Positions 4,344 to 43,743 of a DNA stretch of 64,000 nucleotides are shown here, in pieces. The position numbers and the translations under genes were made by a program. Positions within the stretch are counted from its first letter, which is position 1; each line of letters begins with the position of its first letter. This DNA comes from Thermodesulfovibrionales bacterium. Its GTDB lineage: Bacteria; Nitrospirota; Thermodesulfovibrionia; Thermodesulfovibrionales; SM23-35. The notes below the pieces were generated by a model. It saw nothing but the letters and a program-made list of their open reading frames with translations. It did no database searches and was not told the DNA's origin. The stretch spans positions 693 through 64,692 of the forward strand of contig JASEEX010000006.1 in NCBI GenBank assembly GCA_030019415.1, written 5' to 3'.

Positions 4344-4427
4344 AAATTAGCAATTATCAATGCAAAATTATCAATAAGTTTTAACTTGATAATTGTTAAT
4401 TGATAATTTTAACTTGCAATTAAACCT
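4344..4427. repeat. AT-rich imperfect palindrome in the hypB-hypF spacer
   Basis: Arms are built from TTATCAAT / ATTGATAA-type units around the centre AAGTT-TT-AACTT (about 4376-4387). Confidence 0.6.
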
Positions 4428-6836
4428 TTGAGCATGGGATCTCGCAAAACTGATTTATGGTTAATGAAACCCAGGGTGAAGATATTAGTCAGGGGAATTG
4501 TCCAGGGAGTTGGCTTCAGGCCCTTTGTTTATAGCCTCGCCAGAACTTTGAATCTCAAGGGCTTCGTGATGAACTCATCCAGGGGTGTTACTATCGAGAT
4601 AGAAGGTAACGATAGCTCCACCTTTATCGAGAGGCTTACCAGAGAGGCCCCACCTCTTTCACAGATAATGGAAGTTGATATAATTCCCATGCCCTATCAT
4701 GGTTATCAGGATTTTCAGATAGTCAGGAGTGAGGACGAAGGGAGTTTCACCCTCATTTCTCCAGATGTCTCGTTATGCGAAGACTGCTTGAGGGAGCTGC
4801 TGGATAAGAATGACAGACGTTACCTCTACCCATTTATAAACTGCACGAACTGCGGTCCAAGATATACAATAACAAGATCCATTCCTTATGATAGACCAAA
4901 CACCACCATGTCTGTTTTTCAGATGTGCCCTGAATGCGAGAAAGAATACCATAATCCAGAAGACAGGAGGTTCCATGCCCAGCCGAATGCATGCCCCATC
5001 TGTGGACCTCAGGTCCAGTTAAAAGTTAAAAGTGAAAAGTTAAAAGTTGATGAAAAAGAGAATCCACTAAGGGAAACAATAAGACTTCTAAAGCAAGGAT
5101 ATATTGTTGCCATAAAAGGGCTGGGGGGGTTCCATATAGCTTGCGATGCAACTAACGATGAGGCAGTAAAGACGTTGAGATTAAGGAAGAGAAGGAGTAA
5201 CAAACCCTTTGCCCTGATGGCTCCTGATGTTATAACAATAAAAAAGTTCTGTGAGGTATCTGAGGAAGAAGAGATGCTCTTAATTTCTAACAAAAGACCG
5301 ATTGTGCTACTTAAAAAGAGGCAAAACTCTCTTCCTGATGCAGTTGCACCGAATAACCCCTGCCTCGGCTTCATGCTTCCCTATACACCGCTGCATTACT
5401 TGCTTTTTTACTATCCGACCCCCCCTGTGCCCTCCCTTGCTAAGGGGGGGATTGGAGGGGTGAATTTCGATGCCCTTATCATGACGAGTGGCAACCTCTC
5501 GGAAGAGCCTATCGTCATAGACAATAATGAGGCTCTCTCTACGCTTTCAGGCATTGCTGATGCCTTTCTTATTCATAATAGAGATATTTTTATGCGGGTT
5601 GATGATTCAGTAGTAAGAGTCATCAGTCATCAGTCATCAGTCATCAGTCAAAAACTTTCAACTTTCAACTTCCAACTTTCAACTTTCTTCATTCGTCGTT
5701 CACGTGGATATGTCCCTGACCCCATTCCCCTTCATGAGGATGGCCCCGAGGTTCTCGGTTGTGGAGCTGATATTAAAAATACCTTCGCCCTTACAAAGGG
5801 AGGTTTTGCGATACCGAGTCAGCATATAGGTGATATGGAAAACTACGAGACATTAAACTTTTTTGAAGAGAGTTTAGAAAACCTGAAAGCTGTTTACAGG
5901 GTAAGTCCTGTGGCTCTTGCGTATGACCTTCACCCAGGGTATCTATCAACACAATGGGCATTGCGGCAGGAAGATATTGAAAAGGTAGGTATCCAGCACC
6001 ACTATGCCCATATTGCTTCTGTGATGGCTGAAAAGGGGATAAAGAGGAGGGTTATAGGTTTCTCCTTTGATGGAACCGGTTATGGCACTGATGGAAATCT
6101 CTGGGGTGGAGAAATTTTAATTGCCAATATAGAGGGGTTCGAAAGGGTGGGTCATTTTAGATATATTCCCCTTCCAGGGGGTGAAGTGGCAATTAAGGAA
6201 CCGTGGAGGACGGCCGTAAGTTATATCTGGAGTATGGCTCACGATAAGGCAATAGAGTATCTTGAGTCCATAGGCTTTCTTGAAAGATATGGTCATGAGA
6301 TGATAGGAAACATTTTGAGGGTTGTCGATAAAAAACAATTTTCACCCCTTTCATCAGGAGCAGGGAGGCTCTTCGATGCGGTCTCAACCATACTCGGGAT
6401 ATGTGACAAAAATACCTTTGAAGGAGAGGCAGCTATTGCACTTGAAGCCATAACGAGACCTGATGTAGTCGATGACTATCCTGTAGATATAAAATTCAGA
6501 GAGGCCATAGAGATTGATTTTTCCCAGACTCTTTTGAGGATTATAGAGGATTTAATAAAAGGAGAGGGTAAAGGTTTTATTGCATCTCTTTTCCATAACA
6601 CCGTAGCCACTGCTATTTTTAGAATTGCGCAGAAGCTCTCTTCCCTTTACATGATAAAAGAAGTTGTTCTAAGCGGAGGGGTATTTCAGAACATTTATCT
6701 CCTCGAAAGGACCATCGCAAGGCTTAAATCCATAGGAATGGAAGTCTATGTCAACGAAAAGGTTGCATGTAATGATGCCGGGATATCCCTCGGCCAGGCA
6801 TATATAATCAGGGAAAGGATAAAGGCAAGAAAATAA
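4428..6836 (+). CDS. hypF: carbamoyltransferase HypF
   Basis: Acylphosphatase domain (GIVQGVGFRPF), two CxxC zinc-finger pairs, YrdC-like (KGLGGFH) and Kae1-like domains. 802 aa. The start could instead be the ATG at 4434 or 4461. Confidence 0.95.
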   Translation: MSMGSRKTDLWLMKPRVKILVRGIVQGVGFRPFVYSLARTLNLKGFVMNSSRGVTIEIEGNDSSTFIERLTREAPPLSQIMEVDIIPMPYHGYQDFQIVRSEDEGSFTLISPDVSLCEDCLRELLDKNDRRYLYPFINCTNCGPRYTITRSIPYDRPNTTMSVFQMCPECEKEYHNPEDRRFHAQPNACPICGPQVQLKVKSEKLKVDEKENPLRETIRLLKQGYIVAIKGLGGFHIACDATNDEAVKTLRLRKRRSNKPFALMAPDVITIKKFCEVSEEEEMLLISNKRPIVLLKKRQNSLPDAVAPNNPCLGFMLPYTPLHYLLFYYPTPPVPSLAKGGIGGVNFDALIMTSGNLSEEPIVIDNNEALSTLSGIADAFLIHNRDIFMRVDDSVVRVISHQSSVISQKLSTFNFQLSTFFIRRSRGYVPDPIPLHEDGPEVLGCGADIKNTFALTKGGFAIPSQHIGDMENYETLNFFEESLENLKAVYRVSPVALAYDLHPGYLSTQWALRQEDIEKVGIQHHYAHIASVMAEKGIKRRVIGFSFDGTGYGTDGNLWGGEILIANIEGFERVGHFRYIPLPGGEVAIKEPWRTAVSYIWSMAHDKAIEYLESIGFLERYGHEMIGNILRVVDKKQFSPLSSGAGRLFDAVSTILGICDKNTFEGEAAIALEAITRPDVVDDYPVDIKFREAIEIDFSQTLLRIIEDLIKGEGKGFIASLFHNTVATAIFRIAQKLSSLYMIKEVVLSGGVFQNIYLLERTIARLKSIGMEVYVNEKVACNDAGISLGQAYIIRERIKARK
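5018..5052 (+). repeat. (GTTAAAA)-type heptamer tandem array inside hypF
   Basis: gttaaaa gttaaaa gtgaaaa gttaaaa gttgatg, translated as LKVKSEKLKVD. Confidence 0.7.
5419..5460 (+). repeat. G/C-run hairpin element in frame inside hypF
   Basis: CCCCCCCTGTG, then CCCTCCCTT-GCT-AAGGGGGGG (9-bp stem with one T.G pair), then ATTGGAGGGG. Encodes PPVPSLAKGGIGGV. Confidence 0.6.
5619..5688 (+). repeat. two abutting heptamer arrays inside hypF: (GTCATCA)x4.5 then (CTTTCAA)x5
   Basis: Read directly from the sequence. Translated as VISHQSSVISQKLSTFNFQLSTFF, between the conserved DDSVVR and RRSRGYVP blocks. Confidence 0.8.
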
Positions 6837-12154: not shown

Positions 12155-12237
12155 ACCCCCGTTAGAAAAAAGCCCGCCCTGTTAGATATAAACATAAAAA
12201 TAACCCGTTAGAAATATTTCTTCTAACGGGGTTTACA
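12155..12237. repeat. small TIR element with CCCCGTTAGAA ends
   Basis: ACCCCCGTTAGAA (12156) ... CCCTGTTAGA ... ACCCGTTAGAA-atatttc-TTCTAACGGGGTTTAC (12203-12236). Same termini as the element at 43581..43743. Confidence 0.6.
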
Positions 12238-37046: not shown

Positions 37047-37832
37047 TCAATCCTTTAATCTTAACTTCACAAATTCCTTTAAGGTTGAAGAGGCCTTCTT
37101 AATATCATCACTTTGTGGTAATTTAGAGGTAATCCTGTCTATATAACCCCTTTCTAATAGCAACCTAAAAGATGTCCTGAAATTGAGGTCATATATCCAT
37201 GAGAGTTGCATAAGTTTAAAATCATTCAATGTCTTTACTTTTGAAAGATAAGCCATCCGCCCTCTATGAATACATGAGAGGACATCTTCTGAATAATCCG
37301 TCGTATCTGATAGTCCAAGACCTACTGCAGAGGCCCTTTCTTCTTCAGGACTCTCATAATACTCTATAAATACTCGCCATATATCCAGTTTATCAGCATC
37401 CCTTATTAATCTGATGAAGAAAATAATATCCTTTTTTTCTATCTTTGGTATTGAAAAGGCATTGTGGAATCTTACTGCCTGGATGACCAATTCCTGTTCA
37501 TTATCGGAGAGATTCTGGAGGGTTTTTTCCTCAAGGAGTGTCTGAGCTCCAAGAAGCCCGTGATTAACGGAGATACTATCTCTGAATGTTCTGTATTTTG
37601 CATACTGCGGGAATCTTCCGATATCGTGGAAAAGGGCTACTGTTTCAGCCAGCATCATGTCGTTATTGCCGAGAGACAATTCTCTGGCTATCTCTATAGT
37701 GTTCTTACATACATTGAGGGTGTGTTCTTCCTTAAGATAGATATTCTTCTGATCCCCCATGTTTGATGAATAGAAAGATTTACAATAATCAGAAAACCAG
37801 TTTTTGAAAAAAAATAAATCATCCCGGGTCAT
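37047..37832 (-). CDS. HD domain phosphohydrolase
   Basis: H...HDIGR motif plus a distal D. 261 aa. Overlaps the upstream gene by 4 nt. Confidence 0.75.
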   Translation of the reverse strand: MTRDDLFFFKNWFSDYCKSFYSSNMGDQKNIYLKEEHTLNVCKNTIEIARELSLGNNDMMLAETVALFHDIGRFPQYAKYRTFRDSISVNHGLLGAQTLLEEKTLQNLSDNEQELVIQAVRFHNAFSIPKIEKKDIIFFIRLIRDADKLDIWRVFIEYYESPEEERASAVGLGLSDTTDYSEDVLSCIHRGRMAYLSKVKTLNDFKLMQLSWIYDLNFRTSFRLLLERGYIDRITSKLPQSDDIKKASSTLKEFVKLRLKD

Positions 37833-38590
37833 CTTTCCTCGAGCCCCCCCAACAGAATAATAACAACATTAGGATCTGAAAAAGACATATCCGTAATATC
37901 TTCAGGTGGCCCCTTTGTGATCTTTTCATCAAGGTAACCGAGTCTCTCACAGACAAACATTATGAGCGATAAATTACGGGTGATGGGTGATGAGGTAAGA
38001 ATTTTTGCAATCTCTGTAGGGTTATTTTCTCTATCTGTGAGGATTGCGATTTTCTTGTGTCTTTCAAGCAAAATAGGAATATCCTTAATTTTATACTCCA
38101 GACCTCTTCTCTTTTTAGGGTCCGGGCCTTTGTGAAGACTCATGAGAAAGGCATTATCCCATGGTTCCTTTATCCTCGAAAATGCCACCTGAATGCTTGA
38201 AAGATCAGGGATTATCTCCATCATATCTTTCCTGAATTCACTGATGACCCTCCTACCAATACCAAAGAACAAAGGGTCTCCAGAGGCGAGGACAGTTATA
38301 CCACATGGGGGAAACATAGTTTCCCCCATGGGCCCCTTTTCTTCAAGGGGGATTTCACAAGGGGGACACAGTCCCCCTTGTGTGCGAATTTGTGATTTTA
38401 TGAAGTTGATGGTCTCATCCACATTATCAATTACGAGCACCCTTTCCTTCACCTTCTCAAACTCTTCATATCCTTTAAAAACCTCGAAAAGCCTGCTGGA
38501 GGAAAGTATGAACTCGGAGTTATAGATAATCTCTCTCTGTCTTTTATCAAAGGGCTTGTAGCCTATTCCTATGACATAGATTTTAGTCAC
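37829..38590 (-). CDS. CbiE-like precorrin methyltransferase-fold protein carrying an in-frame palindromic insertion
   Basis: IYVIGIGYKP and VLASGDPLFFGIG tetrapyrrole-methylase motifs. The segment RTQGGLCPPCEIPLEEKGPMGETMFPPCG is encoded by three DNA hairpins. Confidence 0.6.
   Translation of the reverse strand: MTKIYVIGIGYKPFDKRQREIIYNSEFILSSSRLFEVFKGYEEFEKVKERVLVIDNVDETINFIKSQIRTQGGLCPPCEIPLEEKGPMGETMFPPCGITVLASGDPLFFGIGRRVISEFRKDMMEIIPDLSSIQVAFSRIKEPWDNAFLMSLHKGPDPKKRRGLEYKIKDIPILLERHKKIAILTDRENNPTEIAKILTSSPITRNLSLIMFVCERLGYLDEKITKGPPEDITDMSFSDPNVVIILLGGLEER
38304..38382. repeat. three consecutive GC hairpins inside the cbiE-like CDS
   Basis: CATGGGGGAAAC-ATA-GTTTCCCCCATG, CCCCTT-TTCTTC-AAGGGG, and CACAAGGGGGAC-ACA-GTCCCCCTTGTG. 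All stems are perfect. Confidence 0.85.
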
Positions 38591-41919: not shown

Positions 41920-43578
41920 CTACCTATACCACTCATTCTTTTCTTTTGGCACATACCAGTGTATAAAGTCATACCATATGCCCAGTGGTGCCTTCTCTAC
42001 ACCCTTAAACCTCTTGTGAAGTACGGGAAGGGCATCCGGGACATAAAGAAAGGTATAGGGTTGACCATCCGCGAGGATTTCATGTATCCTGTGGTAAATT
42101 TTTCTTCTTTTTTCAATATCAAATGTCCTTCTTCCCAGAAGGAGAAGCCTGTCAACCTCCTCATTTTTGTATGAAATAAAATTAAATTCCCCTTCCCTGG
42201 TCTTTGAAGAATGCCAGATGTCATAGGCATCAGGGTCTCTTGATAAAGCCCATCCCATAATGACTGCCTCAAAGCGTTTCTTGTCTATAAATTCATGTAA
42301 CATCGCCTGCCATTCAAGCACCCTTATATTCATATCAATCCCGACCCTCTTAAGGTTCTCCTTTATTATCTGAGCTGTCTTGAGCCTCGCCTCATTGCCC
42401 TGATTTACAAGGACGATGAAACTGAAGGGCTTACCGTCTTTACACAAAATGAGGCCTTTGTATTCTTTATGAGATCCCCCTTCTGAAGGAAGGGGTTCCA
42501 CAGGGGAAACACAGTTTCCCCTGTGCAGTCTCCATCCTGCCTGGGCAAAAAGTATCAATGCCTTCTCGGGATTATACTCGAGGTCTTTTACAGCAGGATT
42601 ATATGCCCATGATTCTGGGGGAAAGGGGCAAGTGCAAGGGGTACCGTAGCCGAGGAGGACACCATCAATAATATCCTCCTTGTTTATTGAATGGGTAAGG
42701 GCCTGCCTGACTCTCTTATCCGAAAACCTCGGGTCAAGGAGGTTATAGCCTAAATATGTATATCCGAAAGAGGGGTATCTAAATTTCTGAAAATATCTAT
42801 TGAAGAACTCTGAATTTGCCTGGAGTTTAAACTGTGGTGGTGTAAGGCCCATAAAGTCTATGCCACCAAATTTCAGTTCAAGGAACATAGTTGCCATATC
42901 TGGGATAATCCTCGCAACATATTTATCAATCCCCGGCCTTCCCTCAAAATACTTATCGAATGCCTCCAGGACTATCTTCTGACCCGTCACCCACTCCTTT
43001 AATTTATAGGGGCCGGTTCCGATAGGATTTCTATTGTATTTTTCGGAAGTTATATCTTTTCCATCAAGTATATGTTTAGGAATTATTCCCATAGCCCATG
43101 ATTCAAGTGCTGGTGCATAAGGCTCTTTGTAAAATACCTTCACTGTGTATTTGTTTAATACCTCGACCTTCTCTAAAGGACCATAATTGCTGCTATATGG
43201 TGTTGGAACCTCCGGGTCTATTACAGTCTTACATGTAAACAGGACATCTTCAGCAGTAAATTCTACACCATCGTGCCATTTAACATCCTTCCTGAGGTGG
43301 AATGTTATCTGAAGACCATCAGGAGAAATATCCCATGACTCAGCCAGATCACCCGTTATCTTTATATTCTTATCGTATTTCGTAAGACCATTAAATATAA
43401 GGCCGCTGATCTCGCCTGAAGCGCTGTCGGAAGCAAGTAAAGGAAGGAGCCTCTTTGCATCGGCAAGAAAGCCTACAGTGATTGTATTAGGTCTTTTAAT
43501 CTCGGGCTCACGAGTGCATCCGAAAGCAAGAAATAGAAAGTAGGAAATAAGAAGTAAGAGGGATATTCTTCGTCTCAC
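41920..43578 (-). CDS. ABC transporter substrate-binding protein, family 5 (peptide/nickel type), with an in-frame palindromic insertion
   Basis: Lipobox LAFGC and typical family-5 blocks. The segment HRGNCVSPVEPLPSEGGSH is encoded by two DNA hairpins. Confidence 0.85.
   Translation of the reverse strand: MRRRISLLLLISYFLFLAFGCTREPEIKRPNTITVGFLADAKRLLPLLASDSASGEISGLIFNGLTKYDKNIKITGDLAESWDISPDGLQITFHLRKDVKWHDGVEFTAEDVLFTCKTVIDPEVPTPYSSNYGPLEKVEVLNKYTVKVFYKEPYAPALESWAMGIIPKHILDGKDITSEKYNRNPIGTGPYKLKEWVTGQKIVLEAFDKYFEGRPGIDKYVARIIPDMATMFLELKFGGIDFMGLTPPQFKLQANSEFFNRYFQKFRYPSFGYTYLGYNLLDPRFSDKRVRQALTHSINKEDIIDGVLLGYGTPCTCPFPPESWAYNPAVKDLEYNPEKALILFAQAGWRLHRGNCVSPVEPLPSEGGSHKEYKGLILCKDGKPFSFIVLVNQGNEARLKTAQIIKENLKRVGIDMNIRVLEWQAMLHEFIDKKRFEAVIMGWALSRDPDAYDIWHSSKTREGEFNFISYKNEEVDRLLLLGRRTFDIEKRRKIYHRIHEILADGQPYTFLYVPDALPVLHKRFKGVEKAPLGIWYDFIHWYVPKEKNEWYR
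42477..42525. repeat. two GC hairpins inside the SBP CDS
   Basis: CCCCTTC-TGAAG-GAAGGGG and CACAGGGGAAAC-ACA-GTTTCCCCTGTG, both with perfect stems. Confidence 0.85.
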
Positions 43579-43580
43579 GC

Positions 43581-43743
43581 TTTACCCCGTTAGAATGCCC
43601 CGCTGCTTGCCCCGTGCGAAGCTTTGCTTCTATCGGGGCTTGCAGCGGGGATGAAAATAATTTCCTTTTTGAGCGAACACGGGGTCAATGCCCCGTGTGA
43701 GCATTCCCGTTAGAAGGGCGAAAGGTCTTCTAACGGGGTTTAC
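43581..43743. repeat. 163-bp composite palindromic element with CCCCGTTAGAA termini
   Basis: TTTACCCCGTTAGAA ... TTCTAACGGGGTTTAC outer inverted repeat. Inner stems CCCCGCTGCTTGCCCCG/CGGGGCTTGCAGCGGGG, ACACGGGG/CCCCGTGT and CCCGTTAGAAG/CTTCTAACGGG. Confidence 0.7.

Follow-up and report, generated by a model that had tools for sequence, protein, structure and literature searches.

In the present study, we analysed a window of 64,000 nucleotides (the whole stretch of DNA presented above, from contig JASEEX010000006.1 of a Thermodesulfovibrionales bacterium, phylum Nitrospirota), in which the gene cbiE carries in frame a 79-nt block of G+C-rich palindromes. The block is a head-to-head dimer of two units of about 40 nt, and not three independent hairpins. 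Relatives of the unit were found in a second gene of the window and in many other genomes, and we consider that the block and these relatives form a non-autonomous DNA repeat family resembling the extragenic palindromes of repetitive type known as REP sequences, whose copies inside genes are tolerated passengers (probability roughly 0.7). The family appears to be undescribed; the in-frame insertion of palindromes is itself already known.

Results

All three hairpins of the block fall within the cbiE open reading frame (ORF, 37829-38590). Read from the window sequence, H1 is CATGGGGGAAAC-ATA-GTTTCCCCCATG (38304-38330) and H3 is CACAAGGGGGAC-ACA-GTCCCCCTTGTG (38356-38382), each with a perfect 12-bp stem and a 3-nt loop. 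Together with the 6-bp stem of the small central hairpin they read exactly as in a preliminary description of this DNA, and so does the minus-strand ORF, which crosses the block as ...IRTQGGLCPPCEIPLEEKGPMGETMFPPCGITVLASGDPLFFG... with the frame preserved. The three hairpins are thus all present; what did not stand is their treatment as separate elements, since the block is made of two inverted units. Once the copies are oriented, the repeat unit consists of a purine run ending in GGGG(G), 2-5 nt and a 27-nt hairpin with a perfect 12-bp stem and a 3-nt loop, about 40 nt in all, with the flank written AAGGGG(G). The facing flanks of the two units meet at the dimer junction (Table 1). Unit A is oriented sense to cbiE and encodes EEKGPMGETMFPPC, and unit B is antisense and encodes TQGGLCPPCEI. 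With the covariance model R1, unit A scored 51.4 bits (E 8e-10) and unit B 52.6 bits (E 4e-10).

An exhaustive hairpin search of the 64 kb recovered perfect G+C-rich stems of at least 10 bp only at H1, H3 and 42499-42525. By simple arithmetic, about 0.004 perfect 12-bp stems with a 3-nt loop would be expected by chance in 64 kb. A degenerate pattern for all three stems had no match in 100 dinucleotide shuffles, and CCCCTT-N4-9-AAGGGG occurs twice in the window against 0.03 expected. The pattern GGGGRAMNNNKTYCCCC matches H3 alone. In addition, the computed fold of a 95-nt mRNA segment of the block gave three separate hairpins at -56 kcal/mol (z = -7.4).

An identical protein in a Thermodesulfovibrionia metagenome-assembled genome (MAG) carries the NCBI name CbiE. 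Most standalone CbiE orthologs have 227-231 amino acids, against 253 for the window protein, and in the alignment the distance from the helix end FIKS to the strand ITVLASGDP is 9-11 residues in the orthologs against 31 in the window. The cbiE block is thus an insertion. It was earlier proposed to test whether about 26-29 residues are an insertion relative to all CbiE orthologs; the insert is absent in about 20 of 25 aligned orthologs. A relative with 70% identity (locus L001) has unit B only, is 39 nt shorter and lacks unit A, and a syntenic relative from a different assembly (L122) has both units. The L001 ortholog of H3 shows two changes matched on both arms, and the changes between L122 and the window in H1 are likewise matched on both arms. 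Furthermore, the stem of H3 recurs in L033, L053, L099 and L133. The insert spans approximately residues 71-97, between helix 57-70 and strand 98-101. AlphaFold2 (AF2) gives coil for 71-97, with a predicted local distance difference test (pLDDT) score below 50 at residues 74-94 and the remaining fold intact, and the insert is thus predicted to occupy a disordered surface loop, a point that the preliminary description had put forward for checking. The same loop holds unrelated inserts in the orthologs P0012, P0028, P0037, P0055 and P0097, e.g. PSKLKTQNSEL and APPLLDTRACSELEIFKKGDSQIAPALK (alignment A1, columns 92-127), and it is a general hot spot for extra sequence.

The second site lies in a gene for a periplasmic solute-binding protein (SBP). 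Its hairpin H4, CACAGGGGAAAC-ACA-GTTTCCCCTGTG (42499-42525), is antisense to the gene and encodes HRGNCVSPVEPLP. The layout is like that of cbiE, with a decayed and an intact unit head to head and the junction CCCCTT..AAGGGG at 42477-42495, and a segment of L123 homologous to the decayed unit retains a recognisable arm, GTCCTCCTTATG. Near-identical stems had been claimed for two other genes of the window; the one at 42477-42525 is a true copy (57.7 bits), and the one at 5419-5460 is not near-identical and has no model match. Where 16 SBP orthologs read W-KKGKN-GLLEK, the window protein reads W-RLHRGNCVSPVEPLPSEGGSHKEYK-GLILCK, a net gain of 21 codons. Both window inserts are a multiple of three in length and both host ORFs are intact. 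The SBP site is filled in two further lineages (intact in L123, decayed in L124) and empty in the closest relative, L122 (90% amino acid identity). On a neighbour-joining tree the filled alleles are distributed patchily, and they have junction codons in common. The 3' junction of the SBP insert is native sequence already resembling a hairpin arm. In L124 (1177-2823, SBP ortholog P0121) the first family hairpin is destroyed, and a perfect 9-bp hairpin, CCATGAACC-AGAAAC-GGTTCATGG, stands in its place.

H3 and H4 are read in different codon phases (TQGGLCPPCE and HRGNCVSPVE), and sense-oriented copies elsewhere encode a third peptide, MGETxFPPC. Since the phases differ and the peptides are unrelated, the similarity lies at the DNA level and not at the protein level. 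The earlier suggestion of a dispersed palindromic element inserted in frame was therefore borne out by the ortholog alignments, by these differences of phase and by the many further copies.

Copies of the stems were searched for beyond the window, as the preliminary description had proposed. Scanning of reference genomes with the hairpin pattern gave at least 120 loci, and scanning of metagenomes with a Nitrospirota-type pattern gave 16 loci, at about 10 independent sites; further divergent copies were recovered by covariance model. Among the reference-genome matches listed, about 108 belong to Gaiellales/Thermoleophilia (Actinomycetota, 65-73% GC), 8 to Nitrospirota (41-47% GC) and 2 to other MAGs. 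One Gaiellales contig, CAWIWF010000006.1, has at least 8 copies in 64 kb. Head-to-head dimers occur in cbiE and the SBP gene, and most other copies are monomers. A scan of viral contigs gave no match, hence no sign of a phage vehicle there. The Gaiellales consensus, gAAgaAGGGGGC.-CACGGGGGAAAC-atG-GTTTCCCCCGTG, is the same composite as unit A, and the G-run flank is conserved in the Gaiellales copies though it lay outside the search pattern. A second covariance model, R2, was built from Gaiellales copies alone and allowed a non-circular test on the window. It gave unit A 49.4 bits (E 6e-11), where the hairpin without its flank reached 35.4 bits, and it gave the intact SBP unit 46.9 bits; in the orientation that includes the flank, 14-20 bits are gained over the hairpin by itself. 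Rfam 15, searched under gathering and E-value thresholds with 12 loci and the window region, returned tRNA and tmRNA matches only, and a full-text literature search for the stem strings returned nothing relevant.

Some copies suggest more than the basic unit. Many Gaiellales copies, among them those of L002, L064, L085, L104 and L114, have a further conserved flank, GCTTCGCTTCGCTCGCTT, on the side opposite the C-run. This flank is mirrored on both sides in L114, which lengthens the palindrome, and a longer composite element may exist in Gaiellales. In L127, L130, L131, L137 and L139, which are one locus in several groundwater samples, an indel of 16-17 nt distinguishes the alleles. It falls between two GGGGGATT runs immediately upstream of the hairpin and looks like slippage between the G-run and its duplicate.

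The stems are perfect in 108 of 122 oriented copies. The search pattern had permitted 1,024 arm combinations, of which only 32 are complementary; at stem position 3 the pair is C with G in some copies and T with A in the others. In a set of 40 diverse copies, pairing holds in 99.2% of cells and covariation is seen at 5 of the 12 pairs, with a score that none of 500 shuffles reached. With the model-found copies included, there are at least 10 distinct stem variants, all perfectly paired (e.g. CGTGGGGGAAAC/GTTTCCCCCACG and CAAAAGGGGGAT/ATCCCCCTTTTG). The 15 non-Watson-Crick pairs are 8 G.T and 7 A.C, with neither strand favoured. An RNA selected on one strand should give an excess of G.U on that strand, and the lack of strand bias among the mismatches therefore indicates that the constraint acts on DNA. 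Arm-to-arm correction by intrastrand template switching is known for quasipalindromes. Pairing of the arms could be kept in this way, or through formation of a DNA hairpin or cruciform.

The usual position of the unit differs from that in cbiE. In Gaiellales, judged by codon-position GC periodicity, both flanks are coding on one strand in only 3 of 101 copies, and the other 98 are not intragenic. The hairpin side adjoins the 3' end of a gene in 44 Gaiellales copies (in the order gene, hairpin, NN-CCCCCTTCTTC) and the sense is opposite in 8; single copies were seen after a tmRNA gene, after tRNA 3' ends and after a GroEL-type stop. Most of the Nitrospirota copies occupy the gap from the stop codon of one gene to the ribosome-binding site of the following one, and a smaller number are in frame within genes. 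Their non-coding copies are intercistronic, which is the classic REP position. A GGAGG Shine-Dalgarno (SD) sequence follows 4-7 nt past the hairpin, and after 5-8 nt comes the ATG of a real ORF; this arrangement was found at at least 7 independent sites, in one orientation throughout. In 5 of 13 such Nitrospirota copies the G-run flank itself contains the stop of the ORF upstream on the same strand (…TAG-GGGG…). The orientation of the unit relative to the upstream gene is opposite between the two groups. The idea that the element tolerates or targets coding sequence is thus kept only in its first half, as most copies of the family are extragenic.

Outside the window, the intragenic copies, whose hosts were read from translation, comprise two separate units in L053 (helicase-like ORF), a single unit in L068 (ComEC-like ORF) and another in L033 (N-terminal extension of a CheR-like ORF). 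The two units of L053 (1122-1166 and 1227-1271) have the same orientation, stand 105 nt apart in frame and encode KGVITRGTKSPLCM and KRGPVGETAFPPR. All 7 independent intragenic units have stems free of stops in every frame, against 4 of 14 intergenic units (Fisher p = 0.004). The string CATAAGG, with TAA in one frame, is present in 10 of the 14 intergenic units and in none of the intragenic ones. The loss of a single reading frame is not enough to account for the full stop-free effect, and CATAAGG may therefore mark a subfamily restricted to intercistronic sites.

A consensus scan for intrinsic terminators called none of the family hairpins of the window. The tail after the hairpin is NN-CCCCCTTCTTC in Gaiellales and CCC-AAAGGAGG in Nitrospirota, with no directly following T/U run. 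We rejected an upstream ORF starting from the terminal ATG of the hairpin, as the frames and lengths differ between loci. The G-run and the SD sequence, despite a superficial likeness to a direct repeat, were also rejected as a target-site duplication; the upstream copy is always GGGGG and is conserved in Gaiellales, and hence it is part of the unit. The possibility that the G-run was a pre-existing target is contradicted by L001, which has no G-run where unit A is missing.

Table 1. Positions of the genes, repeat units and related segments in the window and of the Y1_Tnp genes in Gaiellales loci
Feature	Position	Strand	Remarks
cbiE (precorrin-6Y methyltransferase subunit, 253 aa)	37829-38590	minus	Pfam PF00590 TP_methylase; NCBI name CbiE
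Unit A	38300-38344	minus	G-run flank GAAGAAAAGGGG, then CC, then H1
Central small hairpin, CCCCTT-TTCTTC-AAGGGG	38333-38350		facing G-run flanks of units A and B at the dimer junction
Unit B	38342-38386	plus	G-run flank TTCAAGGGGG, then ATTT, then H3
SBP_bac_5 gene (periplasmic solute-binding protein, 552 aa)	41920-43578	minus	Pfam PF00496, E 1e-92; ortholog alignment
Decayed partner unit in SBP gene	42439-42485	minus	CAGAAGGGGG-ATCT-CATAAAGAATAC-AAA-GGCCTCATTTTG; R1 12 bits, E 0.5
Intact unit in SBP gene	42485-42529	plus	flank GAAGGAAGGGG, TTC, H4; R1 57.7 bits, E 3e-11
HypF G/C-run segment	5419-5460	plus	CCCCCCCTGTG-CCCTCCCTT-GCT-AAGGGGGGG-ATT-GGAGGGGTG; not counted as a family member
Y1_Tnp (IS200-like/RAYT-type)	L006 190-741; L094 ~1904-2389; L056 25-276		adjoining a short-chain dehydrogenase gene

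A propagating enzyme was looked for among REP-associated tyrosine transposases (RAYTs), with RayT and IS200 query sequences. Y1_Tnp genes occur in three Gaiellales loci, L006, L094 and L056 (Pfam E 1e-9 for two of them). A gene present once per 3-Mb genome would be expected about 0.3 times in the roughly 108 Gaiellales blocks, against the 3 seen. The Gaiellales Y1_Tnp genes are flanked by different G+C-rich hairpins (e.g. L006 149-210), and they may mobilise another family.

The HypF segment at 5419-5460 was rejected as a family member. It matched neither covariance model (R1, R2), family-type sequence was found at this loop in none of the orthologs compared, and the orthologs show only a loop that varies in length. 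The segment is an insertion of about 15 amino acids relative to the solved structures 3vth and 4g9i, and its CCCTCCCTT-GCT-AAGGGGGGG resembles the small central hairpin of the cbiE block; it may be a relic of a dimer centre. The same ORF (4428-6836) holds in frame (GTCATCA)x4 and then (CTTTCAA)x5 at 5618-5690 on the plus strand, encoding ISHQSSVISQKLSTFNFQLSTF. These heptanucleotide tandem repeats are missing from both solved HypF structures and represent a second, different class of repeat that intrudes into coding sequence. In a homolog search with the middle region of HypF, nearly all matches were shorter than 320 amino acids, although several came from very long contigs. Gene calling would thus seem often to split hypF in these lineages, perhaps owing to frameshifts at the repeats. 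Directly upstream of the hypF start, at 4345-4410, there is an AT-rich cluster of inverted repeats (AATTATCAA.../...TTGATAATT) that could be operator-like.

Two other kinds of hairpin were seen in the window. One hairpin with its tail, CCCGTTAGAA(G)-loop-(C)TTCTAACGGGGTTTAC, is present at both 43706-43743 and 12203-12236 and makes a further dispersed family of small hairpins; at least the copy near 43706 stands outside genes, with the SBP gene and secG on its two sides. At 43677-43698, within this intergenic stretch too, the hairpin ACACGGGG-TCAATG-CCCCGTGT has an outer stem resembling the family stems CACGGGGG...CCCCCGTG, with a score of only 8 bits (E = 4) under R1.

Discussion

We believe that the unit moves about the genome as DNA, or did so in the past, and related copies exist in other lineages. 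Its usual home would be extragenic, in the gap between stop codon and SD sequence in Nitrospirota and just past the 3' ends of genes in Gaiellales, and a unit or a dimer would occasionally land inside a gene. Such intragenic copies would persist only where the frame is kept, the frame in use has no stop and the position is a flexible surface loop. The CbiE and SBP inserts would be survivors of this kind, passengers with no demonstrated role in the protein. Whatever keeps the arms complementary probably affects the two DNA strands alike. It could be selection for a DNA hairpin or cruciform that propagation requires, or else correction of one arm by the other. We infer the mobility of the unit from its patchy presence and absence and not from observed events. 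A trans-acting HUH/Y1 enzyme of RAYT type, working on single-stranded hairpins, might propagate the unit, but we offer this only tentatively and regard it as rather doubtful.

Several points weigh against this view. The Gaiellales copies were retrieved by a pattern derived from the window, and the flank alone is independent evidence of their relatedness. Within the 64-kb window of this genome there are 3 intact units and all are intragenic, a coding fraction that covers the window only. The shared junction codons of the filled SBP alleles suggest one origin, and their patchiness may reflect loss or recombination and not repeated insertion; we read the filled state as one insertion followed by loss or recombination, with a hot spot as the alternative. 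No clean target-site duplication was seen between filled and empty alleles, where the junctions are blurred by divergence and by the loss of about 5 native codons. Exhaustive model searches of the loci with Y1_Tnp genes found no family hairpin flanking these genes, the nearest being 2.5-6.8 kb away, and the Nitrospirota loci examined held no Y1_Tnp gene. Finally, no transposition event, autonomous partner or parent insertion sequence (IS) was identified at the loci examined.

The strict position and orientation of the intergenic copies beside ribosome-binding sites also count on this side, and they could mean that the unit is chiefly a functional cis-acting intercistronic signal (tuning mRNA stability, processing, the stalling of ribosomes at the stop upstream or the start of translation in the gene that follows), with the intragenic copies being accidental. 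We judge this explanation improbable as the main one, though it is compatible with a mobile origin and does not exclude the REP-like family. It would account for the single orientation of the Nitrospirota sites, at least 7 of them independent, in which the stop stands in or next to the G-run, the hairpin follows, GGAGG comes 4-7 nt later and ATG after a further 5-8 nt. It would also account for the strong orientation bias of the Gaiellales copies at the 3' ends of genes and for the restriction of the CATAAGG subfamily to intergenic sites. The G-run is SD-like, the 3' arm is anti-SD-like and the hairpin stands within about 10 nt of the upstream stop; according to PMC6006769 (its ref. 30), REPs up to 15 nt from a stop codon are reported to affect translation. 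In L081 (host read from translation) and L133, the hairpin lies 8-9 nt before the ATG with no other SD sequence, and the G-run might there be a hairpin-bridged SD. This account is opposed by the reversed orientation to the upstream gene in the two phyla and by the unrelated downstream genes (rpmF, a dapB-like gene, fumarate hydratase, a DtxR-like regulator and an ABC ATPase). Neither strand shows the G.U excess, Rfam gave no match, and the antisense intragenic copies (H3, H4) cannot work in this manner. The palindromes could instead be double-stranded DNA sites for a dimeric nucleoid-associated or regulatory protein common to the carrier lineages, as their perfect two-fold symmetry, the fixed 3-nt spacer, the invariant half-site parts (GGG, AC/GT and CA/TG) and the mismatches without strand asymmetry would allow. 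However, 5 of the 12 half-site positions vary freely provided that the other arm follows, which fits base pairing better, the asymmetric G-run flank is conserved, and copies stand in coding regions and at hundreds of unrelated loci; we therefore hold such a role for quite unlikely.

The remaining explanations deserve still less credit. Among orthologs the loops of CbiE and HypF are of unequal length and hold further unusual inserts, and the SBP 3' junction lies in native arm-like sequence, which would suit an origin of the hairpins in place, by quasipalindrome or template-switch mutation in hypervariable loops with no dispersal. But a 45-nt unit with an asymmetric flank recurs at unrelated loci and genes and in two phyla, an independent origin of which is not credible, and this explanation has very little probability. 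Selection of the insert at the protein level, for example for a CPPC or cysteine-rich metal or redox motif in CbiE, is slightly less probable again. The CbiE insert does encode CPPC and a third cysteine, and the QGGLCPPCEI frame recurs in L001, L122 and L033. Against this, other frames give HRGNCVSPVE, ITRGTKSPLCM and LMGETEFPPCI, about 20 of 25 aligned orthologs lack the insert, where AF2 predicts disorder, and L122 alters 3 residues in the H1 part with the pairing of the outer stem preserved. That the hairpins are an artefact of assembly or binning is scarcely conceivable: the source is a MAG and chimeric reads can make palindromes, but the same inserts recur at the same sites with small differences in GCA_040753955.1, in GCA_040755805.1 and in ENA and Logan contigs.

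The REP-like repeat family was compared with known systems, using for REPs and REPINs the work of Gilson, of Higgins, of Bertels and Rainey (PMC3116915) and of Di Nocera et al (PMC3733652). Both are G+C-rich stem-loops of 20-40 nt in many dispersed copies, placed mostly between unidirectional genes or at 3' ends. Inverted doublets, frequent among REPs, occur here in cbiE and the SBP gene. In both, the neighbouring gene can take its stop codon from a terminus of the unit, and a minority of copies stand wholly inside ORFs, in loops. Intercistronic and 3'-end sites, doublets, stop-supplying termini and copies in ORFs are described for the GTAG/CGTC REPs (PMC3733652). In contrast to these, the consensus of either phylum has no GTAG or CGTC, the hairpin starts with CAYR and the flank AAGGGG(G) is SD-like. 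The stems here are perfect, with 12 bp and a 3-nt loop, where REP stems are imperfect. The loci searched gave no RAYT flanked by units, and as the GTAG/CGTC tag was also missing we filed the family as REP-like and not as a member of the REPIN-RAYT systems. The unit is furthermore present in two phyla, at 42% and 70% GC, whereas in one account REPIN-RAYT systems are described as lineage-specific and vertically inherited (10.1101/2022.05.22.493013).

The family resembles the Rickettsia palindromic elements (RPEs) in that palindromes lie in frame in intact genes, the same DNA gives different peptides and the positions are tolerant surface regions. RPEs are roughly 100-150 bp and are not known outside Rickettsia. 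Units of about 40 nt (a 79-nt dimer), hosts in Nitrospirota and Actinomycetota and mostly extragenic copies set the present family apart from that description. RPEs are treated in PMC3733652 (its refs 13 and 14). They were earlier named as the only precedent, which does not hold, since REPs and small mobile repeats inside ORFs are documented (PMC3733652, PMC2759123, PMC2229807). [quoted passage not shown] MITEs are likewise short non-autonomous inverted-repeat elements, both intergenic and intragenic, that add peptide segments; the present repeat differs from them in that no duplication and no parent IS were identified. The small dispersed repeats (SDRs) of cyanobacteria reportedly are mobile-looking hairpin units of less than 30-40 nt that nest side by side, also inside genes (Elhai et al. 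2008). This work is cited in PMC3116915. The SDRs have no sequence relation to our repeat and belong to another host phylum.

Conclusion

Small palindromic repeats are usually treated as extragenic and lineage-specific, and the repeat family presented here departs from that. Enzymes that are otherwise conserved gain 13-26 residues from it and are not broken, and in Nitrospirota it is placed with nucleotide precision between stop codons and ribosome-binding sites. The unusual part is that Nitrospirota (42% GC) have the unit, with its asymmetric flank, in common with Gaiellales (70% GC), a finding not easily squared with the view of REPINs as lineage-bound. The perfect, covarying 12-bp stems and the SD-like flank are also less ordinary. 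If this sharing were due to transfer or to a common trans-acting factor, the family would be a tractable case for the study of REP-like movement and of arm pairing. A bolder reading, which we hold to be speculative and improbable, is that a portable module of about 40 nt has spread horizontally across phyla by an enzyme that recognises the single-stranded hairpin and prefers SD-like or arm-like sites, and that between genes it acts as a general regulator of mRNA stability or translation. If true, it would mean a REP-type system that is neither lineage-bound nor RAYT-flanked and has a built-in link to ribosome-binding sites. For annotation, such inserts make proteins longer and give rise, in the proteomes of MAGs, to peptide segments that are spuriously "novel".

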